Source: Eubacteriales bacterium (lineage in GTDB: Bacteria > Bacillota > Clostridia > Oscillospirales > CAG-272). Taken from it: a stretch of DNA of 58,296 nucleotides. Below are positions 19,440 through 50,307 of this stretch, one piece after another. The notes under the pieces were generated by a model. That model was not told where the DNA came from, did not search any database, and saw only the letters and a program-made list of their open reading frames with translations. Each line of letters opens with the position of its first letter. Positions within the stretch are counted from its first letter, which is position 1. The DNA is taken from contig JAZLDE010000147.1 in NCBI GenBank assembly GCA_045614625.1, positions 1-58,296 on the forward strand, given 5' to 3'. A program made the translations under genes and the position numbers.

Positions 19440-19454
19440 AAGGAGGCATGCCAA

Positions 19455-20981: not shown

Positions 20982-20991
20982 CGAAACCACA

Positions 20992-21022
20992 CAAAATGCT
21001 CGCCGCTCGGTGAGCATTTTGT
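20992..21022 (+). terminator. Hairpin terminator after the transporter operon
   Basis: AAAATGCTC-gccgctcggt-GAGCATTTT followed by GTCT. Confidence 0.5.
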
Positions 21023-21043
21023 CTACCAAAAAAAGGAGTCAAC

Positions 21044-28417: not shown

Positions 28418-28424
28418 AAATCAA

Positions 28425-28456
28425 GGTCACACGATATTGTACGTGTGACCTTTTTT
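28425..28456 (+). terminator. Rho-independent terminator, copy 1 of a duplicated hairpin
   Basis: GGTCACACG-atattgta-CGTGTGACC followed by TTTTTT. Confidence 0.7.
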
Positions 28457-28588
28457 GTAAATCGAAAACCCCTGCGGTTATGGACTTATGACCTGAAATA
28501 CACCTCGAAAAATATTTTTGCGCGTTGGGATATTTCTACAAAAACAAACACGATTTTTATTCAAAATGCCGATTTTTTATTTTACATA

Positions 28589-28617
28589 TTGACAGATTGA
28601 ACAACACGCTGTATAAT
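28589..28617 (+). promoter_or_regulatory. Consensus sigma-70 promoter, copy A of a duplicated 46-nt promoter/operator block (28580-28625)
   Basis: TTGACA-17 nt-TATAAT. The block is 41/46 identical to 35181-35226 by hand alignment. Confidence 0.6.
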
Positions 28618-28741
28618 GTGGACGTGAAATCCGAAAGTGGAACATGGCAAAATGTCCGGACAAATGTAAAAATGTCGGGTTTGTATGCCACATGCCAACT
28701 GCGGACGATGTATTGAATGAACAACGAAAAGGAGTAAGGAC

Positions 28742-30022
28742 ATGAGCGAAGGCACGACGTATGAAGTGCAGTCTCAGGAGTTGGAAGCAACTTCTGAAAA
28801 TCCCATCGTAACTCAAGAGCCGGATGGCATCATAGCTGAGTCCTCGATGGAAAACCAAGACGGAGCGGAATTGGAAAAATCAGATTCCGGATCGTCCAAG
28901 AAAATTGCGTGGAAAAGCGTATGGACGAAGATCTTGGCATTTATCCAAACCAACATATTCACTTCCATGACCTGCAAGATCTCATTGCTTGTGTTGGAGG
29001 CTCTTATGTTACTGCTTTGCGGCATCCAGCTTGTAAAGTGGTGCTTGTCAATCAAAGATACGTACATGAATTATTGGGACGCAATTCGAACGTTTGATAT
29101 TGTCAATATCGTCACGATGGTTCTAATGTTGATTTTTGCAATCACGCTGTTCGCTAAGGTGATTGAAGGTATCGTCGGCATGATTAAGAAGGGACGAGAG
29201 GCCAGCTTTGCATCGGTTGCTACGCTGTTTGCTTTTGCCATCTTCTCCATGTTTATGACTCATCTGTTTGACGGAAAGGAACTTTTGATTTCGTCGTTTG
29301 CTTATGCACCGATGCTCAAAGCGCTTGCATGGATTGTGGGGATATACACCGTGATCAGATTGCTGTTCAAGGACTTTGGTGCACGAGTCTGGTCGGTCTT
29401 CTTCAGCATTGGCGGTATCATTCTCGCCATTGTGATGTTTATGCAGAACGTGGGTGATTTTGCTTTGATCACTTTTGAGACCCTCGGTGAATCGGTTTCG
29501 TTTTCTTTCTCGGAGCTGAATGTAATTGAATTTTTCAAGATCCTTTTCTTTGATGGCAGTTTGACGGATGCCAACGGGGCGGAGCTCTTGCTTATCGCCG
29601 AATTTGCTCTCTCTGATCTCGGTATCGGTGAGATGGGCCTGTTGCTTTGTACGTTGATGCAGATTATTGCAATGGTGGTTGCGGACTTGTTGCCCTATGC
29701 CGCGCTGTCGCTGATGGGATATTTCCTGTACGGCTTGACTTGCAGAAATTACGTTCAGTATTATCAGCTGCGCGCCGCTCAAAAGGTGGCGACCACCATG
29801 CTGGTGATCTCCGTGATGTCGATGGCTTCAACGATCGCCTTGAGCGTATTGGCAAGCAGAGCAGGGGGACTGACGATTACAGTTGATTACGTTAGAGCAA
29901 CCTTGACGATTGTCCTGGACGTCGCTATGATCGTTGTGACCGCATTGCCGTGGAAGTTCTACAATATCACCTACAACCGTCATTTCGCGGAATATAAGAA
30001 GAATGGAGGAGACTACGTATAA
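28742..30022 (+). CDS. Hypothetical polytopic membrane protein (426 aa) with an acidic N-terminal tail
   Basis: An AAAGGAG RBS precedes the ATG. There are about 8-9 hydrophobic helices and no recognisable family. The stop overlaps the next gene's ATG (TAATG). Confidence 0.7.
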   Translation: MSEGTTYEVQSQELEATSENPIVTQEPDGIIAESSMENQDGAELEKSDSGSSKKIAWKSVWTKILAFIQTNIFTSMTCKISLLVLEALMLLLCGIQLVKWCLSIKDTYMNYWDAIRTFDIVNIVTMVLMLIFAITLFAKVIEGIVGMIKKGREASFASVATLFAFAIFSMFMTHLFDGKELLISSFAYAPMLKALAWIVGIYTVIRLLFKDFGARVWSVFFSIGGIILAIVMFMQNVGDFALITFETLGESVSFSFSELNVIEFFKILFFDGSLTDANGAELLLIAEFALSDLGIGEMGLLLCTLMQIIAMVVADLLPYAALSLMGYFLYGLTCRNYVQYYQLRAAQKVATTMLVISVMSMASTIALSVLASRAGGLTITVDYVRATLTIVLDVAMIVVTALPWKFYNITYNRHFAEYKKNGGDYV

Positions 30023-32049
30023 TGGCACTGTTACAATGTGAAATGTGTTGCGGCGAGCTTGAAATATCCCCCGACAAGTCCGTCGGCGTATGTAAATATT
30101 GCGGTTCAACGTTTACGATTCCCAAAGAGATCGAGAAAAAGGGAAATCTGTTCAACCGCGCCAATTACCTCAGACAAAATTGTAATTTCGATAAGGCAAT
30201 CGGCGTATACGAGTCTATTCTGGCGGAAAACTGCGAGGATGCGGACGCGCTGTGGGGCCTGGTGCTCTGCCGCTATGGTATTGAGTTCGTAGAAGATCCC
30301 AAAACGGGCAGCCGTATCCCCACCTGCCACAGAGCCAGCCGTACGTCCATTCTTCTGGACCCCGATTTCAAGGCTGCACTGAATTTTGCGGATGCGGAAA
30401 AGGCAGCGGTATATAAAGAAAACGCAACGCGCATCGACCAGATTCAAAAAGCGATTTTGAGTTTGTCCGACACGCAGGAAAAATACGAGGTCTTCATCTG
30501 CTATAAGGAGACGGACGAGAATGGTGAGCGTACGATCGATAGCGTTTTGGCGCAGGAGCTGTACAATGAGCTGAAAAAAGAAAAGATCCGCACCTTTTTT
30601 GCAAGAAAAACGCTGGAGGGAAAGGTCGGCTCCAGCTACGAGCCTATCATTTATTCTGCCCTGACCAGCGCAAACGTTATGATCGTTCTGGGTACCAAGC
30701 CCGAATACTTTGAGGCAACTTGGGTCAAGAACGAATGGAGCAGATATCTGGATTTCATGCAGGACAGTAGTGATAAGCATCTGATCCCTGCGTACAAGGG
30801 CATGTCGGCTTATCAGCTTCCCGAAGAGTTCGCAGCGATTCAGGCGGTCGATATGTCGCGCATCGGCTTTATGCAGGATTTGTGCGACGGTGTCAAAAAG
30901 CTGCTTCGTAAAAATGAAACCGAGCAGAATAATGGTTCCACCATTTCCAAGGAGAGCTTGTATTCACGCGCAATGGTCTTTTTGGGCAATCGTGAGTTCT
31001 ATAAGGCAGTCGATTACTTTGAAAAGGTACTGGATATTGACCCGCAGTATGCTCGTGCGTATTGGGGACAGCTGTTGGCTTCCTATCAGTGCGTAACCAA
31101 TAATGAGCTGATCAACTGTACCGCGGACGACTGGACTGAGGACGCCAGACTGAACAACGCGCTGCAATTTGCCAACCCCGAGGAAAAAGCCATCTATGAG
31201 GATACGCTGGTGAAGCGTACGGCCAACTTCAAAAAGCTGGCAAACGCAGCGCTTGAGAGTAAAGATTACGCGAAGTGCATTGGCTGGTGTGACAAATTTA
31301 TCAAGCAGAATTCCGGCGACGGAAGCGTTTGGTGGATTCGTCTGCTGGCGGTTCACAATTCTTGCAATTCCAACGAACTGTATCAGCATTGCTTGAAAGA
31401 GGTAGTGTCCATTCTTGATATGCCCGAGTACAAATATGCGCTGGAATATTCCATTCAGGAAGAGAGCGCGATGTACGAAAAGACGGCGCAAAAGATTGAG
31501 CGTGCCGTGCTTGAAAAGCGCAGATCCCTTGTCTACGACGATTGCCACGCGTTTATGTGCGCATCGATCGAATCGATCAAACGCAGAAGACAGGACGGTG
31601 TTTCGGGACAGTGGCGCAACTACGAAGCGGAAGCTGCCGCTTTCGCAACGCTGCGCTCTTATAACGGCAAATTCTGTAGAAACAATATTTTTGCTATGTT
31701 GATCCAGCTGATGCTTTGGGGCATTTGTGCCTTCTTCACGGCCATGATTGCGGCTGATGGCGACGAAACCACGTTCCGTACGGCGTTTTTGACAGTGTTC
31801 GGTTTGGCAGTAGGAATTGCTTGGATCGTTAAGCTTTCCAAGTATTCGCACAAGTCCAAGAGAATTCCTTATTTGATGAAGGAATGTGAAAACATAGGTC
31901 GAAGACTGGAAGGCGACAAGGAAAACGTTGCATACGCCAACGCCCGCGAGGCCAAGGCTGAAAAGCTGCTGGAGGAATTTCTGGCGGATCCCTCGATTTC
32001 CGTGGAGGATATTGAGAAAAAGCGAGCCGAATTTGAAGCAATACTTTGA
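30022..32049 (+). CDS. Zn-ribbon / TPR-like / TIR domain protein with a C-terminal TM hairpin (675 aa)
   Basis: An N-terminal CEMCC...CKYCG ribbon is present. The TIR_2-like block is YEVFICYKETDENG...ANVMIVLGTKPEYFEATWVKNEWSRYL. TPR-like helices flank it. Two TM helices lie at about aa 556-605. Confidence 0.8.
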   Translation: MALLQCEMCCGELEISPDKSVGVCKYCGSTFTIPKEIEKKGNLFNRANYLRQNCNFDKAIGVYESILAENCEDADALWGLVLCRYGIEFVEDPKTGSRIPTCHRASRTSILLDPDFKAALNFADAEKAAVYKENATRIDQIQKAILSLSDTQEKYEVFICYKETDENGERTIDSVLAQELYNELKKEKIRTFFARKTLEGKVGSSYEPIIYSALTSANVMIVLGTKPEYFEATWVKNEWSRYLDFMQDSSDKHLIPAYKGMSAYQLPEEFAAIQAVDMSRIGFMQDLCDGVKKLLRKNETEQNNGSTISKESLYSRAMVFLGNREFYKAVDYFEKVLDIDPQYARAYWGQLLASYQCVTNNELINCTADDWTEDARLNNALQFANPEEKAIYEDTLVKRTANFKKLANAALESKDYAKCIGWCDKFIKQNSGDGSVWWIRLLAVHNSCNSNELYQHCLKEVVSILDMPEYKYALEYSIQEESAMYEKTAQKIERAVLEKRRSLVYDDCHAFMCASIESIKRRRQDGVSGQWRNYEAEAAAFATLRSYNGKFCRNNIFAMLIQLMLWGICAFFTAMIAADGDETTFRTAFLTVFGLAVGIAWIVKLSKYSHKSKRIPYLMKECENIGRRLEGDKENVAYANAREAKAEKLLEEFLADPSISVEDIEKKRAEFEAIL

Positions 32050-32061
32050 TAAACACCAAAA

Positions 32062-32093
32062 GGTCACACGGCGTAAGTCGTGTGACCTTTTTT
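32062..32093 (+). terminator. Rho-independent terminator, copy 2 of the duplicated hairpin
   Basis: GGTCACACG-gcgtaagt-CGTGTGACC followed by TTTTTT. The stem is identical to the one at 28425-28450. Confidence 0.7.
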
Positions 32094-32179
32094 GCTAAAA
32101 ACTGCCGAGGCGCGCTTCGTTTATCCCATGCCAATCAAGGAATAATAATGGTACGATTGATTTGACACAGGAGAAAACG

Positions 32180-34504
32180 ATGAACAAAAACAAAAATGCG
32201 CAAGCGCGACACACGTCGCCCGCGCGCCAAAGAAAAAGCCTTGGCGTTACGCTGCTTAACGCCGCTTTGATGATCCTGGCCATTGGTATGACGCTTGCCG
32301 TGCTGATTGGCATTGCCGTGGCGTGGTACGCGGAGAAGAATATAACGCCGGATTTCGATGAAACACAGCTGAGCGCCGTCACAGGCGCAGGCGCATCCCA
32401 GTTGTATTATTACGACTTCGAGGATCGGTCCTCTCGTGCGGGAACAAGGATAGAATTGCCCGACGGCACGCTGGACGGTGGGGAGCACGTCATTCCCGTG
32501 ACTTATGCCGAGTGTCCGCAAGCGTTGATCGATGCCTTTGTTGCCATCGAGGATCAGCAATTCTGGCAGCATCATGGTGTCAACTGGGGGAGGACGCTCT
32601 CGGCGGGACTTAACTATTGCCTTGGTTACACCCGCCATTTCGGTGCGTCGACCATTACACAGCAGCTCGTCAAAAATCTGTCGGGCAAGAATGACTATTC
32701 CATTCATCGCAAGGTACAGGAAATGTGCTGGGCCAACGATCTGGAGAACCGTAGTACCAAGGAGGAGATCATGGAGCGATATCTGAATATCATCAATCTG
32801 TCCCAAGGATGCTATGGCGTGGGCGCGGCGGCCGAGCGTTTCTTTGGTAAGACGGTAAGCGAGCTGACGCTTGCCGAGTGCGCCGCCATCGCGGGCATTA
32901 CCAACAATCCCTCCTATTACGATCCCGTCCGCTTTCCGGCCCATGCCAAGGCGCGACGTGATCTCATTCTCTCCGAGATGCTGGAGCAGGGGTATATCGA
33001 TGAGGCGGCCTATACCGAGGCGGTCGCGCAGGAGCTGTCCTTGCGCGAGCAGGCGGGGCGGGGCAAAACACCCGTTTATTCGTGGTACGTCGATATGGTC
33101 ATCGAGGACGTCATCCGCGATCTTTGCGCCGAATATGGGTACACGCGCGAGTACGCCAACCGCTTGCTCTGGAACGGGGGCTTGCGCATTGAGTTGGCGA
33201 TGGATGCCTCGGTACAGGAGCAAGTGGAACAGTATTATGCCGACGCTTCGCATTTCCCGATTCATAAAAACGGCGAGCGGGCACAAAGCGGCATGATTGT
33301 CATCGACCCTGCCACGGGAGACATTCTCGGCGTTGCGGGAGCGGTGGGAGAAAAGACAGGTAACCGCCTGCAAAGCCACGCTACGACGGCAGTTCGTCCC
33401 GCGGCCTCGGCCATCAAGCCGTTGTCTGTGTATGCGCCCGCCCTTGAACAGGGTGAGATCACCTGGGCGAGCGTATTTGACGACGTACCCGTGACCTTTG
33501 GCAAGGACAATCGCCACCCTTGGCCGCAAAATGCCAATCGCGTATATCGTGGGTTGACCGACGTGCGCTACGCCGTGTCGCATTCGGTCAACACCGTTGC
33601 TGTGCGTGTGCTTCATAAGCTGGGACTGCGCCGTTCGTTTGATTTTCTGCACGAAACACTGGGCATGACCTCGCTCATTGAAGCGCGGACGCTGGAGGAC
33701 GGTCGGACGATCAGCGATGTTGGCGAGGCGGCGCTGGGACTTGGGCAGATGAACTTTGGCGTGACCTTGCGCGAACTGACAGCGGGCTATAGTGCCCTTG
33801 CCAACGGTGGGGTGTATATGGAGCCGCACTCCTATTACCGCGTGATTGCTCCCGACGGAAAGGTTCTGCTCTCGCATAGCCCATCGGGCCGCTATGCCAT
33901 TAGCGAGCAGAATGCCTGCATTATGACCAAATTGCTCGAAAGCGTGGTCACGCAGGGAACGGCCAAGGGCGCACAGATACTGGGTGGGCGAGTGGCGGTG
34001 GCGGGGAAGACGGGAACGTCCAATGCTGATTGCGATCGCTATTTCATTGGCTATACGCCCAAGTATCTGGCAGGTGTTTGGTACGGCTTTGACTATCCCC
34101 AACCCATGACGGATATGAAAAGCAATCCTGCCGTCAAGATATGGAAGGACGTTATACAGCCCATCGTGGCGAAGGATCTGAAAAGAGGCGGTGCGCCGAC
34201 TAAATTTGACTTGGCACAAGGCGTCATTCGCGTCAGCTACTGCCGTGATTCGGGTTTGCGACCGACCGATGCCTGCCGTGCGGATCTGCGAGGTAATCGC
34301 ACCGCAGAGGGCTATTTCATTCAGGGAACGGAGCCGAGAAGCTATTGCGATTGCCACACCATGCGCGACTATGACAGCGAGCGAGGCGTGCTTGCTGATG
34401 AGATGACTATGCCGGAGGCGCTGCAAAAGGTGGGATATATCCGTGTCAAGCGCACCTTTCCACGTAAGGTATACGTGGCGGACGAACGGTACGTCGTCCA
34501 TTGA
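32180..34504 (+). CDS. Class A penicillin-binding protein (PBP1A family transglycosylase/transpeptidase)
   Basis: GT51 motif EDQQFWQHHG, SxxK (SAIKP), SxN (SHSVN), KTG (KTGTS). The ATG at 32180 follows an AGGAG RBS. Confidence 0.9.
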   Translation: MNKNKNAQARHTSPARQRKSLGVTLLNAALMILAIGMTLAVLIGIAVAWYAEKNITPDFDETQLSAVTGAGASQLYYYDFEDRSSRAGTRIELPDGTLDGGEHVIPVTYAECPQALIDAFVAIEDQQFWQHHGVNWGRTLSAGLNYCLGYTRHFGASTITQQLVKNLSGKNDYSIHRKVQEMCWANDLENRSTKEEIMERYLNIINLSQGCYGVGAAAERFFGKTVSELTLAECAAIAGITNNPSYYDPVRFPAHAKARRDLILSEMLEQGYIDEAAYTEAVAQELSLREQAGRGKTPVYSWYVDMVIEDVIRDLCAEYGYTREYANRLLWNGGLRIELAMDASVQEQVEQYYADASHFPIHKNGERAQSGMIVIDPATGDILGVAGAVGEKTGNRLQSHATTAVRPAASAIKPLSVYAPALEQGEITWASVFDDVPVTFGKDNRHPWPQNANRVYRGLTDVRYAVSHSVNTVAVRVLHKLGLRRSFDFLHETLGMTSLIEARTLEDGRTISDVGEAALGLGQMNFGVTLRELTAGYSALANGGVYMEPHSYYRVIAPDGKVLLSHSPSGRYAISEQNACIMTKLLESVVTQGTAKGAQILGGRVAVAGKTGTSNADCDRYFIGYTPKYLAGVWYGFDYPQPMTDMKSNPAVKIWKDVIQPIVAKDLKRGGAPTKFDLAQGVIRVSYCRDSGLRPTDACRADLRGNRTAEGYFIQGTEPRSYCDCHTMRDYDSERGVLADEMTMPEALQKVGYIRVKRTFPRKVYVADERYVVH

Positions 34505-34557
34505 CATCATAAAAATTCACCCTCTTTCATACGATTGTGTGAAAGGGGGCGATTTTT

Positions 34558-35097: not shown

Positions 35098-35189
35098 TGA
35101 AAAAACGAACTGAAATTGTTCTGTTTAGACAAAAATAGTTATTTTTATGTAAAAAATATGTACAAAGGGACAAAAATGATTTTTACATA

Positions 35190-35218
35190 TTGACAGATTT
35201 AACAACATGTTGTATAAT
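35190..35218 (+). promoter_or_regulatory. Consensus sigma-70 promoter, copy B of the duplicated block (35181-35226), with an embedded 12-bp palindrome
   Basis: TTGACA-17 nt-TATAAT. The palindrome ACAACATGTTGT at 35202-35213 spans the spacer/-10 junction. Confidence 0.6.
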
Positions 35219-35252
35219 ATGGGCGTCACAAGCAAGAAAGAGAGGTGTTGTG

Positions 35253-35507
35253 ATGAACTATCCAAACGAAAAGCGGGATGAATATATTGAAAAGTTGACA
35301 GAAGAGCTTCCTGTTCTTCGCGCAAGACTTCACATCTCGCAAGGGGAGTTAGCACGTGATGTCGGTATTTCCCGTCAGACGTATTCGCTGCTTGAAACGG
35401 GAAAGCAGAAAATGACCTGGATCACGTTCATGGCGATGATCGCTTATTTCAGCAGTCACACGAGAACTCGCAAAGATCTTAAGGCGCTTGGCCTGATCGA
35501 TGACTAA
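35253..35507 (+). CDS. XRE-family helix-turn-helix regulator (84 aa)
   Basis: LHISQGELARDVGISRQTYSLLETGKQ is an HTH_3 signature. The ATG at 35253 lies downstream of promoter B with an AGAGAGG RBS. Confidence 0.75.
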   Translation: MNYPNEKRDEYIEKLTEELPVLRARLHISQGELARDVGISRQTYSLLETGKQKMTWITFMAMIAYFSSHTRTRKDLKALGLIDD

Positions 35508-35541
35508 TTACCGAATTAAAATGTAAAAAAGGAGACCAACC

Positions 35542-37299
35542 ATGGCTAATTTTACAATTGAATGTCCGAAGTGCGGAAGTATTAACGCAGCTTCTACGTC
35601 GCTGTTCGCAAAAAAAATGATCAAGTGTGGTACTTGCCACACGGAAATTGACGTCAAGGCCAATCGCTTGACCTCGAAGATCTGCCCTCATTGCCATAAA
35701 ACGTTTGTGTATGATCGCGCGAAGAAAAGCCATCGCGACTGCCCCTCTTGCGGCAGAAAGATCGATGCGGCACAGATTGCGACCGGTAAATACAAGTACG
35801 TAACGCTCAACTGCCCTCAGTGTGCATGCGCTATTGAAGTGGATGAAACGAAAGACACATACACCTGTCCCGTTTGCGACCATGAGCTGGACGTAAAGAA
35901 GGAAATGAGCAAGCAGGCGCTGGTGAACGATACGGGTATCAGTGTGATCCAATACGAGGGTGATAACTCCACCTTTGTTTGGAAGCATCCGATCGAGGAT
36001 TTTAATCTTGGCTCACAGCTGATTGTTCATGAATCTCAAGAGGCGGTCTTCTTCTTGAACGGACAGGCTCTGGATCTGTTCGGTCCCGGCCGTTATACCT
36101 TGGATACGGAAAATCTTCCGATCCTCAAAAAGGTATATAATCTTCCCGAGGGCTCGCAGACCCCCTTCCATGCAGAGGTCTATTATATCAATAAGACGAC
36201 GCAGATGGGTATGAAGTGGGGAACCGATTCCCGCGTCAGATTTGTCGATCCCAAGACGGGCATTCCGTTAGACATCGGTGCATCGGGCGAGCTGAACATT
36301 TGCGTCGAGGATTCCCGCAAGTTGCTGAACAAGCTGGTTGGCACGACGAGCGGATTGACCAACAAGGATGTGCTTTGCGCTACCTCGGATGCCGATGGTA
36401 ACGTTCACAGAACGCTGCAGAGCTATTTCCGTGCTCCGCTGGTTACAACAGTCAAGTCCTACCTTGCCACCGTTATCCGCGAGCGCCAGTTGAATATCTT
36501 TGAGTTGGATGCTCACTTGAACGATATCTCCCGCGATCTGAGAGACAAGATCTCGCCACAGTTTGAGGAATACGGCTTGTCGATTCCCGAGTTCTACGTC
36601 ATGCGCATCGGCCTGCCCGAAGATGACGAAAACCTCAGAAGCATCAAGAGACTGATCTCCGAGGCATATCTGGGTGTTCGCGAAGAGGAAGTCAAGAGCA
36701 GCATCGCAGAGGCTGCTCGCCAGAGAAAGATCATTGAGGCACAGACCGAAGCTCAACTTGAGGCAATTCGTGCACAGGGTGCGGCAGAAGCACAGCGCGC
36801 CGTTGGCTTGGCAGAGGCTGATGTCATGAGAGCTAAGGGTTATTCTCAGAAGGACGTGCTGGATGCAGAGGTTCAGAAGGCATATGCCGAGGGCATGGGC
36901 AATCTGGGCAGCGTCGGTGGCAACGGCGGCAGCGCCGGTAGCGGATTTGCGACGGATCTGGTTGGCATGATGGCCGGCATGAAGATGGCAGAGACCATGA
37001 TTGGCAAGATGGACGGTGTGATGGCCGGCGGCGCAGCTGTGGCTCCCAAAACCGAGGCTCCTTCTGCGGCAAGCTGGACCTGCTCTTGCGGTGAAACGGG
37101 CAATACTGGAAAATTCTGCATGAACTGCGGCAGTGCAAAACCGGAACTTTGGACTTGCTCTTGCGGTCATGCGGGCAATAAGGGTAAATTCTGTGAGGAA
37201 TGCGGCAGCCCGCGTGTTGCCCCCTCTTGGGATTGTGAGTGCGGTCAAAAGGGAAATACCGGCAAATGCTGCCCTGAATGCGGCGCAAAGCGTCCTTAA
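35542..37299 (+). CDS. SPFH (Band_7_1, YdjI/COG4260-like) protein with three N-terminal and three C-terminal zinc ribbons (585 aa)
   Basis: The SPFH core reads LIVHESQEAVFFLNGQALDLFGPGRYTLDTENLPIL...KWGT...EEYGLSIPEFYVMRIGLPED. A coiled Ala/Gln/Glu segment follows. The 3x CxxC-x(15-17)-CxxC units are N-terminal, and the 3x WxCxCG-x5-GKxCxxCG units are C-terminal. Confidence 0.85.
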   Translation: MANFTIECPKCGSINAASTSLFAKKMIKCGTCHTEIDVKANRLTSKICPHCHKTFVYDRAKKSHRDCPSCGRKIDAAQIATGKYKYVTLNCPQCACAIEVDETKDTYTCPVCDHELDVKKEMSKQALVNDTGISVIQYEGDNSTFVWKHPIEDFNLGSQLIVHESQEAVFFLNGQALDLFGPGRYTLDTENLPILKKVYNLPEGSQTPFHAEVYYINKTTQMGMKWGTDSRVRFVDPKTGIPLDIGASGELNICVEDSRKLLNKLVGTTSGLTNKDVLCATSDADGNVHRTLQSYFRAPLVTTVKSYLATVIRERQLNIFELDAHLNDISRDLRDKISPQFEEYGLSIPEFYVMRIGLPEDDENLRSIKRLISEAYLGVREEEVKSSIAEAARQRKIIEAQTEAQLEAIRAQGAAEAQRAVGLAEADVMRAKGYSQKDVLDAEVQKAYAEGMGNLGSVGGNGGSAGSGFATDLVGMMAGMKMAETMIGKMDGVMAGGAAVAPKTEAPSAASWTCSCGETGNTGKFCMNCGSAKPELWTCSCGHAGNKGKFCEECGSPRVAPSWDCECGQKGNTGKCCPECGAKRP

Positions 37300-37327
37300 A
37301 CATAAGGTGAAATAAGGAGATATTGAT

Positions 37328-38047
37328 ATGGCACAGAAAAAAGAAAAATTATTTGGATTGCTCTGGGCGATTCTGTTTCTGTTGTATAACGGTGTCGTTG
37401 CGGCGGTTTTAATGATGTCCGATCTTGCTGCTTTAACCCCTTCGTTCTGGGTGGCTTTGGTATTTGCTGAAATTTCGCTTTTGGCACTGTTGGTTACGTT
37501 GCTGGCGCTTGGAAAAACGCTCACCGTACTCAGAGACTGGTTCTTTGGCTTCCCGATCCTTCGTCATTGTGCGCTGTACCTACTACTTACGATGGTTGCT
37601 TCCGGTTTGTTTATGGGCTTCCAGGATCGCGTTGTGTGGGGCATTGTGTTGGCAGTGCTGCTGCTGTTGCTGGCGGTGTACTTGCTGTTCGCACTCTCCT
37701 GCCTGATCGCCAAGCATACGGTTCAGGATATCGATGCTGGGATCAAGGAGAAGCGTCTTTTCATTGATTTGCTGCGTGTTGATGCCGAAATGCTTTGCGA
37801 ATACTGTGAGGATGCTGAGGCAAAGAAATCGTTTTCGAAGTATGCTGAAGCCGTTCGCTTCAGCGATCCCATGAGCAATGAAGCGCTGTTTGAACTGGAA
37901 AAGGAGATTCAGTTTGAAACCTCGAATGCCATGGATGCACTCAAGCAGGGCAATTTGTCGGATGCGCTGATTCATTGCGATCAGGCATCGAAGTTGCTTG
38001 CCGAGAGAAACAAAAAGTGCAAGGCTCTTAAGGGTCTGCGCGAATAA
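37328..38047 (+). CDS. Hypothetical membrane protein (239 aa; about 4 TM helices plus a helical cytoplasmic tail)
   Basis: An AAGGAG RBS is present. Hydrophobic helices cover aa 8-135, followed by a charged helical C-terminus. I recognise no family. Confidence 0.65.
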   Translation: MAQKKEKLFGLLWAILFLLYNGVVAAVLMMSDLAALTPSFWVALVFAEISLLALLVTLLALGKTLTVLRDWFFGFPILRHCALYLLLTMVASGLFMGFQDRVVWGIVLAVLLLLLAVYLLFALSCLIAKHTVQDIDAGIKEKRLFIDLLRVDAEMLCEYCEDAEAKKSFSKYAEAVRFSDPMSNEALFELEKEIQFETSNAMDALKQGNLSDALIHCDQASKLLAERNKKCKALKGLRE

Positions 38048-38063
38048 TCGAATAAAGTAAAAA

Positions 38064-38095
38064 ACATCCGATCTGTTGTGGATCGGATGTTTTTT
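38064..38095 (+). terminator. Rho-independent terminator of the HTH-SPFH operon
   Basis: ACATCCGATC-tgttgtg-GATCGGATGT followed by TTTTT. Confidence 0.75.
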
Positions 38096-38136
38096 GCTGA
38101 TCATTTTAAGCCTTGAACGGCCGTTTCCAATGGAAT

Positions 38137-38165
38137 TTGACAATTCCTTGCTTGTCGTGTATAAT
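38137..38165 (+). promoter_or_regulatory. Consensus sigma-70 promoter of the sigma-fusion gene
   Basis: TTGACA-17 nt-TATAAT. Confidence 0.55.
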
Positions 38166-38262: not shown

Positions 38263-41200
38263 ATGGCAAAGCTGAAGTATTTGGAGCACACGGACGAGAT
38301 ACTGGTGGCCCTGACGCTGTCGGGAGATCAGGATGCCTACGAGGCGTTGGTCGCGCGATACGAGAGGTCGGTGCTGGCTACCGCACGCCGTATCACGCAC
38401 GACGAATATCTGGCCGAGGATGCCTCGCAGGAGGCATTCGTGTCGGCGTGGATCAAGCTGGACTGTCTGCGCGAGCCCGCCCGTTTTGGCGCGTGGGTGC
38501 GCCGCATTGCCAAAAACTGTGCCGTCAATATCGTCACCCGTCTGCGCGAGTACGTCAGCTACGATGTGCTGGAAAATGCCGTTCATGCAGGCAACTGCGA
38601 CATTGCCGAGGAGAACGAGGACGAGCAAGGAGAGTATATTGCGCTACTACACGAGAGCATCGGCAAGTTACCCGCAAGAGTGCGCGAGATCATCACCCTT
38701 CATTATTTTGAGGGACTGTCCGTTGCCGATATTGCGACGCGACTTGGACTTGCTGTGGGCACGGTCAAGTGGCAGCTACACGACGGCAGAGAGCGCATCC
38801 GAAAAGAAATGGGTGTTATGGAAAAGAAAGTGGATAAAACGCTGGTCGAGCGCGTCATGAAGGAAGTAGAGGAGCTCAAGTTGTGGGGGCTCAAAAACGA
38901 TAAGACGGGCTTTTCCGAGGCGTATGAGAAAACGCTCAAGGCGGTGGAGGAGCTGCCCGAGTGTGGGGAAAAGGATCACGCCATGGCCGACGTGCTCATG
39001 CGGGGCTTTTGGTGGCTGCCCGGGAAGAGAAACGACGAGCTGCTTGCCCGCATCAAAGAATACGCGCTCAAAGGACACAACGACGAGGTCATGGAGAGCG
39101 TATGCGCGGCCGAGGATTCAAAAATGTGGGGCGATCGCCGCATCCCATGGATACGCGACACGCAGATCCCTTACCTTGAGAAGCATGGTTTTGTTAAGGC
39201 GTTGGGCAGAGAATGGTTTTGGTTGGGGCATGCGTATTTCAGAAAAGGGCAGACTCACGAGGGCTTTGCCGCCCTTGACAAGGTGTTGGAGATCTTGACC
39301 CCAAAAGAGGTATACTATGCCAACGCGCTGTCTGCGATACGGATCGAACGGATGCATCAAAATAAGCAGATGCAGGGCAGAGAGGAAAAATGGTATACCA
39401 TGTGCGGGGACGGCGCGCATTACCGCATCCTTGACGGCGAGCTCCGCTGCTGGAGCCGGCCGGGATATAGTGTCGGACAGCTGAGAAACGTGGTGGACGG
39501 TCAAAATATTTTCAGCCATGCTTGCCGCTGTGATAACCGATTTTTTATTCCTAATGCCGCCGTGGGGGATACGATCACGGATCAGGATTGTACGCTGACC
39601 TTCGTCGCAAAGGGCGAAACGGTAAAGACGCCGTGCGGCACGTTTGATGGCTGTGAGATGTGGGAGATCGTGAGCGAGAGTGAGATCTGCCAGACCTGGT
39701 ATGCCGATGGCGTGGGTATCGTCAAGCAGCGTATGAACACGCAGGGCGAATGGTCGGAGCGGTTGCTTAAACACTACCAAATCGTTGGCGGACAGGGGCG
39801 GATTCCCTGTGCTGCGGGCAACGTGTGGGAATACGTTGGGCATGAGGATGCGCAATACATCACGTCGGACGTGAGGTATGAGATGGTGTACAGCGACAAG
39901 GAGGGCGTCACGCTTTCGGGCTTCTTCGCCGTTGAGCGCTTGAAATATGACGAGAACAGCTGGAGCGACATGGTGCTCCAAATGCGCAGTGATTTCACAA
40001 AGATAAGCGAAGCCGGATGGGCACAGATGGTGGACGTTTCCCATGCCGTCGATCGCGCCGAGGCACTGGCCAAAACGCCCTACGAGAAGGCCTACAGCCG
40101 CGCGGCGTGTGACGTTATGCGAAGAATTTTGTCCACCGACAAAGAGATGAATCCCAAACGCACGGTCACGGGACATTGGAATGTGTTTGACGTTAAGCGC
40201 TTGACGCGGGAAAAGGGAAAGCTCCGCGAGATCTGGAATCATTACGGCACCTGCTCGTTTGCCTGGACGTGCATCGATCACAACGATGATAAGGTAGTGA
40301 TGTTCAATGACGTCTATGGCTTTTTGCAGGAAGGCGCAAACTGCCTTTGGTCGGATGATTGGAAGGACGGCTATGCCAAAACGATCGAATTTCAGCGCCA
40401 TGGATTCGTTAATCGGACACAGATCACATGCCGAAGCGTTGGACGAGTAAGTACCAAGGCGGGCGTATTTGACGATTGCCTTGAGGTTACACTGGAAATT
40501 CAAAATCCGGAAAATCGTAGCAATTATCGCTGCGGCAAAAAGACGTATACCTTTGCCCCGGGCGTGGGTATCGTCCGCTTCGTGAGCGAAGACCCAAGAA
40601 ATCATGTGACGCACGAGCTGGCAAGCTACGTCGGTACGGGCGAAGGCTATATGCCTATGCTTGATGGCATGGATCGTCGCTTTGAGGCGATCGGATTGAC
40701 GGGCGGCTACATCAGCGCTGTGGACTATGCCGTTCGTAGGCGCGGGGACGGAAGCCTTTGCCTGATCGAGGATCGCTGCGGCATCCGCGTACTACCGCCC
40801 TACGATGAGAACGATTGGCACAGCATGGTGATATATATGGGAGAGCGTGCCTTTGGCAGAAAGAATGGCGAAGCGCATTTTTACGACGTTTCGCATCTGA
40901 TGGAGCGCTGTCAAGCGCTTGCCAAAACGCCTTATGAAAAGGCACATACAAGGCTTTCCTGCGGCAGTATGCGCCGTATTCTCGAAACCGATGCCAAGTA
41001 CAATCCCGAGCGCACGCACAGCGGGCATATGGACGGATTCTGCGTTCGGTATATAGAGGAGAAGACGGGGCGCGTGGATCTTTTGGAGCAGGAGAATGAT
41101 GCGTTTGAAAACTGGAATATGCACGGTACGGGAGACTGGGGCGCGCCCATGTTCTTCAACGACGTCTACGGCATCTGGGCAGATGCTGCAAACGGCCTTT

Positions 41201-41655
41201 GGAACGAGGTGATCAGGCCAGGTGTGACGATCACGCTGGAGCACAAGCGCCACGGCTACGACGTGACCACAGAGCTTTCCTGCCGCGAGGTCGGCAGCGT
41301 CACCACAGCAGTGGATACCTTTATGAACTGTATCGAGGTAGCAGTTGAGATTAAGGGAATGCCGTATGAGATCTGCTTCCATAACGGCACCAAAAAGTTC
41401 TACTTTGCCCCCGGTGTGGGTATGATCCGCACGGTGCAGGATCACAAGGATCACACGCTGCAGGGCATTTACGATCTGGTGGCCTATGAAGGCACGGGAG
41501 AGGGCTACATGCCGCTTTGCGAGGGCATGACCCGTCGGTACGAGGCGCAGTTTATGCGCGAGGGCTATATTGCCGCGGCCGAGTACGCCATTGAGCGCGA
41601 TAGCGAGGGCAAGCTCTGCCTGATCGAGGACAGATGCGGAATCAAGAAATTATAA
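38263..41655 (+). CDS. ECF-type sigma-70 family factor fused to a ~900-aa non-membrane C-terminal extension (1130 aa)
   Basis: Region 2 (DASQEAFVSAWIKL...FGAWVRRIAKNCAVN) and region 4 (LPARVREIITLHYFEGLSVADIATRLGLAVGTVKWQLHDGR) are present. The ATG at 38263 follows AAGAAAGGAAAA. A helical segment is followed by a tandemly duplicated ~285-aa module. Confidence 0.8.
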   Translation: MAKLKYLEHTDEILVALTLSGDQDAYEALVARYERSVLATARRITHDEYLAEDASQEAFVSAWIKLDCLREPARFGAWVRRIAKNCAVNIVTRLREYVSYDVLENAVHAGNCDIAEENEDEQGEYIALLHESIGKLPARVREIITLHYFEGLSVADIATRLGLAVGTVKWQLHDGRERIRKEMGVMEKKVDKTLVERVMKEVEELKLWGLKNDKTGFSEAYEKTLKAVEELPECGEKDHAMADVLMRGFWWLPGKRNDELLARIKEYALKGHNDEVMESVCAAEDSKMWGDRRIPWIRDTQIPYLEKHGFVKALGREWFWLGHAYFRKGQTHEGFAALDKVLEILTPKEVYYANALSAIRIERMHQNKQMQGREEKWYTMCGDGAHYRILDGELRCWSRPGYSVGQLRNVVDGQNIFSHACRCDNRFFIPNAAVGDTITDQDCTLTFVAKGETVKTPCGTFDGCEMWEIVSESEICQTWYADGVGIVKQRMNTQGEWSERLLKHYQIVGGQGRIPCAAGNVWEYVGHEDAQYITSDVRYEMVYSDKEGVTLSGFFAVERLKYDENSWSDMVLQMRSDFTKISEAGWAQMVDVSHAVDRAEALAKTPYEKAYSRAACDVMRRILSTDKEMNPKRTVTGHWNVFDVKRLTREKGKLREIWNHYGTCSFAWTCIDHNDDKVVMFNDVYGFLQEGANCLWSDDWKDGYAKTIEFQRHGFVNRTQITCRSVGRVSTKAGVFDDCLEVTLEIQNPENRSNYRCGKKTYTFAPGVGIVRFVSEDPRNHVTHELASYVGTGEGYMPMLDGMDRRFEAIGLTGGYISAVDYAVRRRGDGSLCLIEDRCGIRVLPPYDENDWHSMVIYMGERAFGRKNGEAHFYDVSHLMERCQALAKTPYEKAHTRLSCGSMRRILETDAKYNPERTHSGHMDGFCVRYIEEKTGRVDLLEQENDAFENWNMHGTGDWGAPMFFNDVYGIWADAANGLWNEVIRPGVTITLEHKRHGYDVTTELSCREVGSVTTAVDTFMNCIEVAVEIKGMPYEICFHNGTKKFYFAPGVGMIRTVQDHKDHTLQGIYDLVAYEGTGEGYMPLCEGMTRRYEAQFMREGYIAAAEYAIERDSEGKLCLIEDRCGIKKL

Positions 41656-41705: not shown

Positions 41706-43076
41706 TCAGTTGATCGGCACGTCGCCGTCGGTGCAGTGAACGACGGTAATGGGAGTATCTTTATTCCAACTCCACGCGGGTTCGGAATATTTGTTGATGG
41801 CGTTCCATTGTGCCATAGTTCCTTGGAAAGTAATACTTGTCAATTTGCTACAATTACTAAACGCCAATAGACTGATTTCTGTAACGCTCTCAGGAATCGT
41901 AACGCTCGATAAGTTGGAGCAATTCCAAAAGGCGTTCATGCCGATCATTGTAACACCGCCCGGAATGACGATACTTGTCAAATCTGCACAGTTACAGAAT
42001 GCGCGAATGTCGATGATGGTGATCTCCTCGGGAATAACGCTTGTTTTACAGCCAAGGATCAGGATGTTACGCTTCTTTTGGATCAGACAATTTCCTTGAC
42101 TGTAATAGGCTGGATTGTTTTCTTCAACAATAATACTTGTTAAATTGTTGCAATCACGGAACGCGTGATCGCCAATGTACGTCACACTGCCGGATATGAA
42201 GAGGGTTGTCAATCCCGAGCAGCGAAAGAACGCTCCTTCACCGATGGATGTCACGCTGTTGGGAATGGAAATGCTTGTCAGACTAGTGCATTGATGAAAG
42301 GCGTTGCTGTCAATGGTTGTCACACTGTCGGGAATGACGATGCTTTTCAGAGCAAAGCAAGCCTCGAACGTTTTTTCATTGATCGCTGTCACACGGCTGG
42401 GAAGGGAAATGCTTGTTAGAGCGTTGCAACGGCTGAATGCCTCAGGTCCGATGAAGGTCACACTATCAGGGATGGAGATGCTTGTCAAGGCAGAGCAACC
42501 CGAAAATGCAGAGGACCGAATAGAGGTAACGCCATTGGGGATGACAATGTTTGTCAAAGAGGTGCAATTTCTGAACGCGTTTTCCCCAATCAATGATACA
42601 CTGTCGGGAATGATAATGTTTTTCAAGGCGGTGCAATCGGAGAATGTGCCATAGTCAATGATTGTCACGCTGTCGGGAATATTGATGCTGATCAAACCGG
42701 TGCAACCGGAAAATGCGAGGCTTTTAATGCTCGTTACGCTATCCGGAATCGTAATACTGGTTAAACCGGTGCAACTGCCGAACGCAAAGCGGCCAATACT
42801 GGTAACACTGTCGGGAATGGTGATACTTGTCAAATCGGAACAACCGGAAAATGCGAGATTTCCAATAGCTGTAACCGCTTTTCCGTTGTATTCGGCGGGA
42901 ATTACAATATCTGTACCTTGATAAGTGCCAACGCCGACAACAGTGTACGTTTCTCCAACTTGTTCGTATGCCAGTTCTCCGTCGTCGATTGGTGTGTTTG
43001 TAGGAGTGCAGGCCAATACGAGGTTCATCAGTGTAAATGCCAAAAGAAAGATAAGCAAGATTTTGAGAACTTTCAT
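41706..43076 (-). CDS. BspA-type leucine-rich-repeat (LRR_5) surface lipoprotein
   Basis: Lipobox signal MKVLKILLIFLLAFTLMNLVLAC. About 15-17 tandem ~23-aa repeats of the form IPDSVTSIGxxAFxxCTxLTSI. Confidence 0.85.
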   Translation of the reverse strand: MKVLKILLIFLLAFTLMNLVLACTPTNTPIDDGELAYEQVGETYTVVGVGTYQGTDIVIPAEYNGKAVTAIGNLAFSGCSDLTSITIPDSVTSIGRFAFGSCTGLTSITIPDSVTSIKSLAFSGCTGLISINIPDSVTIIDYGTFSDCTALKNIIIPDSVSLIGENAFRNCTSLTNIVIPNGVTSIRSSAFSGCSALTSISIPDSVTFIGPEAFSRCNALTSISLPSRVTAINEKTFEACFALKSIVIPDSVTTIDSNAFHQCTSLTSISIPNSVTSIGEGAFFRCSGLTTLFISGSVTYIGDHAFRDCNNLTSIIVEENNPAYYSQGNCLIQKKRNILILGCKTSVIPEEITIIDIRAFCNCADLTSIVIPGGVTMIGMNAFWNCSNLSSVTIPESVTEISLLAFSNCSKLTSITFQGTMAQWNAINKYSEPAWSWNKDTPITVVHCTDGDVPIN

Positions 43077-46344: not shown

Positions 46345-49300
46345 ATGATTAATGTAAGAGAGCAAAAACTCGGCCAGAACGTTCGTATGAGCTTCTCCAA
46401 GTCGAACACGACGCTCGAACTGCCCAATCTGGTAGAGATCCAGACCAAATCGTTCGAGTGGTTCATCAACGAGGGCTTGGGAGAGGTATTGCGCGACGTA
46501 TCGCCCATTACCGACTATTCGGGCAACCTGCAGATCGATTTCATCGATTATTCGCTGGACAGCAAGCCCAAGTACAGCATCGAGGAGTGCAAGGAGCGCG
46601 ACGCGAACTATGCTGCCCCCCTGAAGGTTAACGTTCGCCTGACGAATCGCCAGACCGGCGAGGTCAAGCAGACCGATATTTTCATGGGCGAATTCCCCAT
46701 CATGACCAAGACGGGTACCTTCGTCATCAACGGTGCGGAACGTGTTATCGTTTCGCAGATCATCCGTTCCCCCGGCATGTATTACGCCACCGATATCGAC
46801 AAGATGGGTAAGCGTACCTATGCCACCCAGATCATCCCCTACCGCGGCGCATGGCTGGAGTACGAGACGGATATCAATGGCGTTATGTACGTCCGCATCG
46901 ATAAAAACCGTAAGCTGCCGCTGACGATGTTCATCCGCGCGCTGGGCATTGAGTCCCGCGAGGATATTTTCGCTATGTTTGGCGAAGACGATCATCTGCT
47001 GGCAACGCTGGAAAAGGACGAGAGTGAAGCGCTGGCAGACCGTGACCATTCGACGGTCGGCGTCGAGGCTCTCAAGGAGATCTACAAGAAGCTGCGTCCC
47101 GGCGAGCCTCCTTTGGTTGAGTCGGCACAGACGCTGATCAATAACTATTTCTTTGATGCCAAGAGATATGACATCGCACCCGTTGGTCGTTTCCGCTTCG
47201 ATAAGAAGATGGCCATCGGCCCCCGTATTGCAAACCACCGTTTGGCAGAGGACGTTGTCAGCCCCATCACGGGTGAAGTGCTGTATGAGGCAGGCACCGT
47301 GCTGAACGAGGAGATGGCACTGCGCGTACAGTATGCGGCTGTGAATGAGGTTACGCTGCAGCTGGACAACGGTGACAAGCTGCGCGTCGTTTCCAACAAT
47401 ACCATCGAGCCCGAGCACCTGTTGGGCTTTGATCTGAAGGATTGCGGAGTTAATGAGAAGGTAAGAACTGCCGTCATGATGGAAATCATGCAGGAGTGCG
47501 GCGGTGACGTTGACGCAATCAAGGCAATGGCCAAGGCACGCATTGCAGAGCTGTGCCCCAAGCACATTACCAAGGACGATATTTTTGCATCGATCAGCTA
47601 TATGATCGGTCTGATGCATGACGTTGGTCAGTACGACGACATCGACCACTTGGGCAACCGCCGTATCCGTTCGGTCGGTGAGCAGCTGCAAAACGCTTTG
47701 CGCATTGGCTTTGCCCGTATGGACAAGATCGTCAAGGAGCGTATGACCACCCAGGACAGCGAAAAGCTGACGCCCCAGGCGCTCATCAACATCCGTCCCG
47801 TAACCACGGCAATCCGTGAGTTCTTCGGCTCGTCTCAGCTGTCCCAGTTCATGGACCAAAACAACCCTCTGGCAGAGCTGACGCACAAGCGCCGTCTGTC
47901 CGCGCTGGGTCCCGGCGGTCTGTCTCGTGATCGCGCTTCCTTCGATGTCCGTGACGTTCACTACACCCACTACGGTCGTATGTGTCCTATCGAGACGCCT
48001 GAAGGTCCTAATATCGGTCTGATTTCCTATTTGACCACCTATGCCCGTATCAGCGATTACGGCTTCATCGAAGCACCCTACCGTCGCGTCAAGCACGTAA
48101 CGGATGAAGCAACGGGTGAAGTCCGCAACTACGTCACCGATGAGGTCGAATACATGACGGCCGACGTCGAGGATGCTTATATCATCGCACAGGCCAACGA
48201 GCCTGTATCCGAGGACGGCGAGCTGCTCAATAAGACGGTCACCGCCCGCGATAGAGCCGAGATCATCGAGATCGATGCTTCCAAGATCGATTTCATGGAC
48301 GTATCTCCCAAGATGGTCGTTTCCGTTGCCACCGCATCCATTCCTTTCCTTGAGAACGATGACAACTCTCGTGCACTCATGGGTTCGAACATGCAGAAGC
48401 AGGCAGTACCGCTGATGGTCACCGATTCTCCTATCGTTGCTACCGGTATGGAGTACAAGGCGGCTGTTGACTCCGGCGTTGTCATCGTCGCTAAGAACGC
48501 AGGTCGCGTTGAGCGCGTTGATGCTGATAAGATCGTCGTTGCTTGCGAGGATGGCACTAAGGACGTTTACGAGCTGATCAAGTTCAAGAGAACCAACCAG
48601 GGTACCTGCTTCAACCAGCGTCCCGTTGTTAAAAAGGATCAGTTGATCGAGGCCGGCCAGGTCATTGCCGACGGTCCCGCAACCGCAAACGGTGAGATTT
48701 CGCTGGGTAAGAACGCCCTCATCGGCTTTATGACCTGGGAAGGTTATAACTACGAGGACGCAGTTCTGCTCAACGAGCGTATGGTCCGCGATGACGTTTA
48801 CACGTCGTTGCATATTGAAGAATATACCCATGAAGCACGTGACACCAAGCTGGGTCCGGAGGAGATCACTCGTGAGATTCCCAACGTCGGTGAGGACGCG
48901 CTCAAGGATCTGAACGCAGACGGTATCGTCAAGAAGGGTACCGAAGTGCGTTCGGGTGACATTCTGGTCGGTAAGATCACGCCCAAGGGCGAGACCGAGC
49001 TGACGGCAGAAGAAAGACTGCTTCGCGCCATCTTTGGTGAGAAGGCAAGAGAAGTCCGCGACACCTCGCTGCGTCTGCAGCACGGTGAGGCCGGTATCGT
49101 CGTTGACGTTAAGGTGTTCAGCCACGAGCAGGGCGACGAGCTGCCTGCCGGTGTCAACAAGGTCGTTCGCGTTTATATCGCACAGAAGAGAAAGATCTCG
49201 GTCGGTGACAAGATGGCAGGTCGACACGGTAATAAGGGTGTCGTTTCCCGCATTCTGCCTCCCGAGGATATGCCCTTCCTGCCCGACGGTACGCCTTTGG

Positions 49301-50289: not shown

Positions 50290-50307
50290 TAAGGGAGTGT
50301 AAGAAGA

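Follow-up and report, generated by a model that had tools for sequence, protein, structure and literature searches.

The stretch of DNA considered here, a 58,296-nucleotide contig (JAZLDE010000147.1) from a Eubacteriales bacterium and referred to below as the window, contains at positions 35253-38047 three genes that encode, in order, a small regulator of the XRE family, a soluble protein of the SPFH family and a membrane protein of 239 residues, named M239 here. These genes constitute one transcription unit, the features of which are listed below. As judged from the comparison of sequences, this operon constitutes the conserved core of a cluster, widespread in gut Clostridia and so far unnamed, in which the SPFH and M239 genes are accompanied by genes for TIR domain proteins that begin with a zinc ribbon.

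35181-35226, plus strand: promoter/operator block B; the same block is found 5' of the XRE gene in loci L005, L007, L008 and L019
35253-35507, plus strand: XRE-family helix-turn-helix regulator of 84 residues, the leader gene (Pfam HTH_3, E = 7e-7; HTH_31, E = 2e-6)
35542-37299, plus strand: soluble SPFH protein of 585 residues (Pfam Band_7_1, E = 3e-42; no hydrophobic segment; invariant cysteines; AlphaFold2 (AF2) model and Foldseek)
37328-38047, plus strand: M239, with about four transmembrane (TM) helices and a cytosolic four-helix bundle (alignment, AF2 model, synteny)
38056-38098, no strand assigned: bidirectional intrinsic terminator at the end of the operon (hairpin and repeat analysis)

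The three open reading frames (ORFs) are separated by gaps of only 34 and 28 nucleotides, and each is preceded by a Shine-Dalgarno-like site (GAGAGG, AAAGGAGA and AAGGAG in gene order). The 84 codons of the first gene are counted from an ATG; the TTG at 35190, with which the mechanically called ORF begins, is part of the -35 box and therefore not the true start. The promoter upstream of this gene matches the sigma-70 consensus at 12 of 12 positions, with TTGACA at 35190-35195 and TATAAT at 35213-35218 separated by a 17-nucleotide spacer, while a hairpin with a 20-bp stem and a run of T residues directly follows the stop codon of the third gene. The description of this locus in an earlier note, as a three-gene operon between a promoter and a strong terminator, is hence accurate, and the peptide strings quoted there for the central protein are found in its translation.

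The central protein is modular. Three zinc ribbons at residues 8-112 are followed by the Band_7_1 domain (PF13421) at residues 153-363, detected with 145.1 bits against a cut-off of 24, then by a long coiled-coil helix (363-453), a linker rich in glycine, alanine and methionine (455-508), and finally by three tandem zinc ribbons (512-583). The N-terminal ribbons are of the CxxC...CxxC type (C8 to C112), with all 12 of their cysteines invariant among 43 homologues, and the C-terminal ribbons are of the CxC..CxxC type, again with conserved cysteines. No hydrophobic 19-mer is present anywhere in the sequence. In the AF2 model, the ribbon modules precede an SPFH alpha/beta domain, from which a helix of about 70 residues leads via a disordered linker to three further ribbons. 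When the SPFH domain and helix were compared with known structures using Foldseek, about 310-340 columns could be aligned, at E values of 4e-9 to 1e-6, to SPFH structures that form rings or cages: human stomatin (9oh9), HflK/C (7vhq and 9cz2), prohibitin (8rrh), flotillin (9bq2) and QmcA (8z5g). Searching by sequence matched no solved structure.

Both ends of this protein vary between relatives. The C-terminal ribbons are encoded by a tandem triplication at 37075-37286, in which a 59-nucleotide core recurs with a period of 75-78 nucleotides and 66-80% identity; the length of homologues varies at this end, and the copy number of the ribbon is probably variable. Many relatives (loci L083-L110, for example 5861-6757 of L089, as well as 6700-7881 of L164 and 6826-7998 of L165) align only from around residue 118-135 onwards. 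According to the gene calls in L164, L165, L166 and L167, the SPFH protein begins at the SPFH domain, with M239 and a partner protein bearing an N-terminal zinc ribbon (the ribbon being termed the handle below, and the partner the client) still present. The three N-terminal ribbons look like a lineage-specific addition.

M239 had no match in Pfam (at E ≤ 0.01), NCBIfam or PADLOC. An alignment of 48 sequences reveals four TM helices and an invariant cytosolic motif, RFSDPMS...E...ERNKKxKxLK. The AF2 model is confident, with a predicted local distance difference test (pLDDT) score of 91, and is all-alpha, comprising the four TM helices and a four-helix bundle; its comparison with the PDB gave no significant fold neighbour. 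A partner of the NfeD type was likewise not found, as M239 matches neither NfeD nor another Pfam family and is entirely helical. A profile search recovered 4,585 clusters at 50% identity (E ≤ 1e-3), nearly all of which are stand-alone proteins of about 230 residues. Divergent ORFs of 211-214 residues situated 3' of SPFH genes belong to the same family (hhalign, 99%), and each of three distant homologues, at 27-31% identity, directly follows a Band_7_1 gene. M239 is probably the membrane anchor of an SPFH oligomer.

When a single genome of each GTDB species was scanned with a pattern, 379 relatives of the SPFH protein were recovered. These are mostly from Clostridia, including Oscillospiraceae, Acutalibacteraceae, Ruminococcus, Lachnospiraceae and Christensenellales; beyond this class they are found in Erysipelotrichales and in one Flexilinea. 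Clustering the ORFs of 80 species-level loci, with flanks of up to 10 kb on either side, revealed just three recurring families: the SPFH protein (80 loci), M239 (74) and the TIR family (62). M239 is always directly 3' of the SPFH gene, at gaps of about -25 to +60 nucleotides. The TIR family accounts for 105 genes, with up to four or more in a single locus, and 103 of the 105 are on the same strand. When only the 34 SPFH loci with at least 5 kb of sequence on both sides are considered, 31 contain a TIR-family gene and tblastn gives three more. In the reverse direction, a survey of metagenome contigs from the N terminus of the TIR proteins found the SPFH gene in 25 of 25 loci with flanks of at least 5 kb, and in 39 of 42 with at least 3 kb. 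This co-occurrence with zinc ribbon, TPR and TIR genes, observed from both sides, combines with the shared promoter/operator block described below to support strongly the suggestion of the earlier note that the SPFH operon is coupled to a TIR cassette. The remaining neighbours of the cluster differ between loci. Because the flanking genes are otherwise unrelated from one locus to the next, the SPFH-M239-TIR cluster is, on this comparative evidence, a mobile module and not a case of inherited synteny.

Some clusters adjoin relaxase, recombinase, integrase, restriction-modification or toxin-antitoxin genes. A serine recombinase/resolvase or an integrase is encoded near the cluster in L022, L023, L030, L039, L056, L077 (c6), L163 (7664-9328), L164 (4925-5599) and L165 (2731-3681). 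Relaxase/MobC is also nearby in L163, and the cluster of L164 is on a 20-kb plasmid, beside a restriction-modification S subunit and a YoeB/RelB pair. Adjoining the cluster of L081, at 15661-21717 on the opposite strand, are genes for a RyR-domain protein, an unknown protein of 705 residues and a 1166-residue protein with a double AAA/Peptidase_M41 (FtsH-like) composition; this arrangement could be due to chance, or could represent another link to membrane quality control.

In the window the cluster is split, with the TIR gene belonging to a second cassette that lies 3.1 kb upstream of the XRE-SPFH-M239 operon. The features of this second cassette are as follows.

28423-28457, no strand assigned: terminator-like hairpin of 35 nucleotides, AAGGTCACACG..CGTGTGACCTTTTTTG (repeat analysis)
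28580-28625, plus strand: promoter/operator block A, which drives the cassette
28742-30022, plus strand: membrane protein mem426, 426 residues with about eight TM segments; no Pfam match; its stop codon overlaps the start codon of the TIR gene
30022-32049, plus strand: TIR protein of 675 residues with a zinc ribbon handle (TIR_2, E = 2.7e-11; conservation of a glutamate; TM prediction; synteny)
32060-32094, no strand assigned: second copy of the hairpin, 80% identical to the first and directly 3' of the TIR stop codon

Blocks A and B are 89% identical across 46 nucleotides and each holds a consensus promoter; no further copy exists in the whole window. The sharing of a promoter block, already pointed out in the earlier note, is borne out by this identity and by the retention of the block in four other species. 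In these relatives (L005, L007, L008 and L019), a single promoter drives XRE-TIR-SPFH-M239(-TIR). As both halves of the window cluster retain a near-identical promoter/operator, a single regulon is the most likely arrangement. Block B contains at 35202-35213 a perfect 12-bp palindrome, ACAACATGTTGT, which lies between the -35 and -10 boxes and overlaps them. It is likely to be the operator of the XRE protein, which is itself a probable autorepressor of both cassettes. This protein exceeds the Pfam thresholds for HTH_3 (29.6 bits against 23) and HTH_31 (28.4 bits against 27). Its orthologues, at 59-68% identity, are found 5' of the SPFH gene or of the TIR gene in about 8-9 loci, and an RHH/CopG gene occupies the leader position instead in 19 others.

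The G+C content of both cassettes is 0.47-0.50, as against 0.54-0.57 in the surroundings, and is also below that of the insert between them. The mem426-TIR cassette is flanked by the two copies of the hairpin, AAGGTCACACG-loop-CGTGTGACCTTTTTTG, which resemble a terminator that was duplicated or the scar of an insertion; taken together with the low G+C content of this cassette (0.47-0.49), they suggest that it was inserted or relocated as a unit. Between the cassettes stand PBP1 and TspO-like genes. By tblastn and jackhmmer, PBP1, TspO and mem426 were found next to SPFH genes in 0-1 loci, and none of the three is accepted as part of the module. The sole homologue of mem426, in L082, is from the same organism, making mem426 a lineage-specific protein that is not conserved with the module. 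A TspO_MBR gene near the cluster of L163 is unrelated and was judged coincidental. The true PBP1 gene (32162-34504; Transgly and Transpeptidase) is overlapped by a 791-residue antisense ORF on the minus strand at 32135-34510, an illustration that at such G+C content the longest ORF is not the gene.

The TIR protein of the window consists of an N-terminal zinc ribbon, a helical module (YGIEYVxDP...PTCHR), a TIR_2 domain at residues 157-280, TPR repeats and two C-terminal TM segments (residues 554-602). The TIR_2 match is of 44.5 bits against a cut-off of 28, and the domain is also called in relatives. Within the motif FICYKE...WVKNEW, the glutamate that is Glu238 in the window protein is present in 88 of 88 aligned homologues; we take this to be the catalytic WxxxE-type position, comparable with E642 of SARM1. 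The TIR clients are predicted NADases. Sequence searches of solved structures returned only TPR matches and a marginal match to a plant TIR. Conservation across the family is strongly asymmetric, the N-terminal 390 residues showing 45-53% identity and the remainder a mean column identity of 6%. TM segments occur in 64 of 99 homologues, around residues 500-650, and the tails contain RCC1 repeats (22 of 83), DUF6273 (20 of 83), BspA-type leucine-rich repeats (LRR_5) or ankyrin repeats.

The handle of these proteins, with the pattern M..L.C..CGG.L......C..CG, is not restricted to them. It also heads TPR-RCC1 paralogues without a TIR domain, trypsin-like proteases (Trypsin_2, E = 1e-27) and small TM proteins, and is found on the partner protein of the Butyrivibrio plasmid pNP21 and on partners adjoining distant M239 genes. 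A further accessory gene, weakly similar to SIR2_2/AbiH, overlaps the start of the SPFH gene in six loci. Among accessory payloads, PADLOC matched the protease to a retron type XI protease (4e-17), and weakly detected LmuA. The overall arrangement is hence that of a Band_7_1 scaffold, M239 and a zinc ribbon-tagged client, with TIR as the dominant payload.

The earlier note had likened the operon to ydjGHI of Bacillus subtilis. There, YdjI is a soluble band-7 protein with a C-terminal zinc finger, the membrane binding of which needs YdjG and YdjH (PMC8581546, PMC11237479). YdjH is defined by a TPM domain, and YdjG is composed of two zinc ribbons, a YpeB/NTF2-like domain and a TM segment (PMC11237479), with an N terminus that reads MIISYKCPNC (PMC8581546). 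The assignment of the SPFH core to the YdjI class is upheld, because it belongs to Band_7_1 and, as reported for YdjI, lacks a membrane anchor of its own and has a zinc ribbon at the C terminus; it differs from YdjI in its three extra N-terminal ribbons and in the triplication of the C-terminal one. The systems are also alike in that a membrane-protein gene adjoins the SPFH gene. YdjG and YdjH were set against the window proteins by their published descriptions. On this comparison, a membrane protein does follow the SPFH protein as had been claimed, but it is not YdjH by homology, since YdjH is defined by a TPM domain and M239 does not have one; with no Pfam or NCBIfam match, an all-alpha model and no similar PDB fold, M239 was rejected as a YdjH equivalent. 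It may nevertheless fill the same anchoring role despite this lack of homology. The idea that YdjG has been fused to the SPFH protein has to be abandoned, as residues 1-125 contain generic ribbons alone, with neither an NTF2-like domain nor a TM segment. Since YdjG starts with zinc ribbons and ends in a TM segment, we infer that its better analogues are the separate zinc ribbon-headed clients.

The two systems differ further in their clients and their regulation. That PspA is absent from the vicinity, as previously stated, was confirmed with jackhmmer: E. coli and B. subtilis probe sequences found no PspA in the window or in the 80 related loci, the rest of the genomes being outside the search. 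Nor is any PspA-like family found among the conserved neighbours or among the genes called and labelled with Pfam families at six loci. The client here is a predicted TIR enzyme, whereas that of pspA-ydjGHI is an ESCRT-III-like protein. Likewise, pspA-ydjGHI is associated with sigma-W, while the promoter here is of the sigma-70 type with a predicted XRE operator. The sequence TGAAAC-N16-CGTA, which we take to be the sigma-W promoter motif, is absent from the whole window even with spacers of N15-17. An extracytoplasmic function (ECF)-type sigma fusion gene does adjoin the operon downstream (38263-41655; Sigma70_r2 and r4_2; NCBIfam sigma70-ECF, 86.6 bits against a cut-off of 42.9), and to this extent the earlier observation is correct, but the proposed ECF/SigW link is not supported. 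A perfect consensus promoter of its own, at 38137-38165, serves this gene beyond the terminator, and of 163 related loci only 7 have an ECF sigma gene at a distance of up to 10 kb; together with the lack of a sigma-W motif, this led to ECF sigma coupling being rejected. The fusion protein is 1131 residues long; its C-terminal region, which is very long and gives a DUF3108-like match, appears by eye to consist of two similar long halves. In L162/L011 a different sigma fusion, of 756 residues, is encoded some 2 kb 5' of the cluster.

In its predicted fold, an SPFH domain followed by a long coiled-coil helix, the SPFH protein resembles HflK/C-FtsH, QmcA-YbbJ/NfeD, stomatin, prohibitin and flotillin. 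The logic of such cage-forming assemblies, in which a scaffold confines or regulates a membrane-bound enzyme, may also apply here. Unlike them, the SPFH protein has no TM segment or hairpin, its partner is neither NfeD nor FtsH, and its clients would be zinc ribbon-tagged TIR proteins. With TIR defence systems (Thoeris ThsB, TIR-effector CBASS/Pycsar and retron-TIR) the cluster shares a TIR_2 domain with a conserved catalytic-type glutamate and a small repressor as leader, and with ThsB in particular the presence of several divergent TIR paralogues per locus. By contrast with these systems, there is no ThsA-like receiver (SLOG/Macro), cyclase or retron, and the TIR proteins are membrane-anchored, have long variable C-terminal repeats and are accompanied by an SPFH protein and a partner with four TM helices. 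Among the conserved neighbours, no receiver of the ThsA type (SLOG/Macro with SIR2 or TM) was detected, the only approach to one being the weak AbiH/SIR2_2-like gene in the aforementioned six loci, and the match of the TIR protein to ThcB4 of Thoeris III was sub-threshold (27 bits against a cut-off of 220). Searches of the available literature on SPFH or band-7 proteins with TIR, antiphage activity or abortive infection gave no account of a cluster of SPFH and TIR genes. The nearest published statements are that Band7-like domains are superstructure formers in vWA-MoxR conflict systems (PMC7159879), and the description of YdjGHI in a survey of phage shock protein (PSP) systems (PMC11237479).

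The interpretation that we favour, with a confidence only a little above even, is that an SPFH-M239 platform beneath the membrane governs TIR NADase effectors that are anchored in it, the whole being a candidate system of defence or conflict. The scaffold would be a soluble SPFH protein of the YdjI class, of the kind that assembles into rings or cages; M239 would tether this oligomer to the inner side of the membrane, and the clients would dock onto the platform via their N-terminal zinc ribbon handles. The platform would corral the membrane-anchored TIR clients and block their self-association, or alternatively concentrate them. An envelope event, either a membrane perturbation or the binding of a ligand by the variable C-terminal domains, for example upon phage attack, would then allow the TIR domains to oligomerise and hydrolyse NAD+, leading to cell arrest in a response of the abortive-infection or conflict type.

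A more specific and doubtful proposal is that of a bacterial 'Toll-like receptor on a flotillin raft', in which hypervariable extracytoplasmic RCC1, DUF6273 and leucine-rich repeat domains would sense phages or other threats, the SPFH-M239 cage would hold the zinc ribbon handle, and TIR NADase activation would proceed from the outside in. The likeness to animal Toll-like receptors in flotillin or raft microdomains, which is one of analogy, consists of variable repeats, a TM segment, a predicted cytoplasmic TIR domain and an SPFH scaffold, and it depends on the putative extracytoplasmic location of the repeats. The order of the chain is reversed relative to Toll-like receptors, with the TIR domain N-terminal here; there is no homology beyond TIR, and the bacterial TIR domain is probably enzymatic. 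In a broader form of this proposal, a Band_7_1 protein, M239 and a client with a zinc ribbon handle could be a modular membrane platform of which YdjGHI-PspA is one specialised derivative.

An immune or conflict role is favoured because of the swapping of payloads, the diversification of paralogues, the effector-type domains, the low G+C content and the occasional mobile-element contexts. Several observations weigh against it. The SPFH protein and M239 had no match in PADLOC-DB v2.0.0, where the TIR protein matched only PDC-S66, at a sub-threshold level (1.4e-4), and identity with a known defence system was rejected on these grounds. No relatives of the module were found among IMG/VR viral contigs, and INPHARED yielded one weak match to the SPFH core (24% identity, E = 2e-15) and ribbon-only matches, all on short unannotated faecal contigs, leading to rejection of a phage origin. 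Many clusters are found among housekeeping genes and not in obvious defence islands; that of the window sits in the core chromosome. The broad conservation of the module in Clostridia would also fit a housekeeping function in the envelope. The AF2 model of the SPFH protein is of only moderate quality (pLDDT 72). RCC1 repeats are also present in paralogues without TM segments, so that the extracytoplasmic site of the variable domains is inferred from topology only. The broad conservation, the frequent housekeeping surroundings and the lack of PADLOC matches would also suit a non-immune role in envelope or surface sensing, which is possible if rather unlikely. The TM-anchored proteins with TIR, TPR, RCC1 and DUF6273 domains would then be receptors or scaffolds for surface or gut cues or for envelope homeostasis, arranged in microdomains by SPFH-M239, with TIR as an assembly or signalling domain and not a suicide NADase. 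Surface-type repeat domains are indeed present, and YdjG, YdjH and YdjI of B. subtilis influence membrane fluidity and the localisation of cell-wall synthesis (PMC8581546). However, the invariant catalytic-type glutamate argues for an enzymatic TIR domain, and the expansion of paralogues, hypervariable C termini and replacement of the payload by a protease or a SIR2/AbiH-like protein follow the pattern of conflict systems, as do the mobile-element contexts at several loci and the low G+C content of the cassettes.

The other explanations are less compatible with the conservation of the cluster. It is improbable that this is a plain Psp-type membrane-stress module, equivalent to YdjGHI and recruiting a PspA encoded elsewhere, with the TIR genes being mere neighbours. 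Its attraction lies in the Band_7_1 membership, solubility and C-terminal zinc ribbon that the SPFH protein shares with YdjI (PMC8581546, PMC11237479), and in the membrane-partner gene 3' of the SPFH gene. Yet the loci and labelled gene calls searched contain no PspA, M239 has no TPM domain, the NTF2-like domain and TM segment of YdjG are missing from the SPFH protein, the promoter is of the sigma-70 type, and the partnership with TIR or other handle-bearing proteins is near-obligate in both directions. A toxin-antitoxin-like addiction cassette, in which TIR is the toxin, the XRE or RHH protein the antitoxin or repressor, and SPFH-M239 a stabilising accessory without a sensing role, appears very improbable. 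The small leader gene, with its weak NCBIfam matches to HipB/MqsA-type antitoxins, and the location of some clusters on plasmid or mobilisable elements would agree with such a cassette, but the XRE matches are far under the family cut-offs, many copies are chromosomal and amid core genes, and it is SPFH-M239 that forms the conserved core, a regulator being detected at no more than roughly one locus in three. Finally, the intervening PBP1 and TspO-like genes in the window might indicate that the SPFH operon merely happens to lie near the TIR cassette and has no functional link to it. This is scarcely credible, being already contradicted by the two-way co-occurrence despite unrelated flanks and by the 46-nucleotide promoter/operator block common to both.

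Further genes of the window include one for a BspA-type leucine-rich repeat surface protein (41706-43076, minus strand; LRR_5, E = 1e-118), a type of repeat that is also found in the tails of TIR clients elsewhere. At 46345-54009 there are two ORFs on the plus strand, of 1314 and 1233 residues, which by their size would fit rpoB and rpoC. The genes upstream of these include ones for a class-I W/Y tRNA synthetase, NamZ, an ABC transporter and SerC/SerA-like enzymes.

If the favoured interpretation, that SPFH-M239 platforms control TIR effectors, is true, it would be the first time that a scaffold of the SPFH/flotillin family is found at the organising centre of a bacterial conflict system based on TIR, and would join two large and poorly connected fields, those of SPFH membrane cages and of TIR immunity. 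It would also provide a context for a very large uncharacterised family of membrane proteins, that of M239, which comprises at least 4,585 clusters and has no Pfam model. The YdjGHI-PspA system of B. subtilis would then be one case of a broader design, consisting of a Band_7_1 scaffold, a membrane anchor and a zinc ribbon-tagged client. As the module is common in the Clostridia of human and animal guts, being found in 379 species-level genomes by one pattern scan, it could affect the dynamics between phages and their hosts in the gut.

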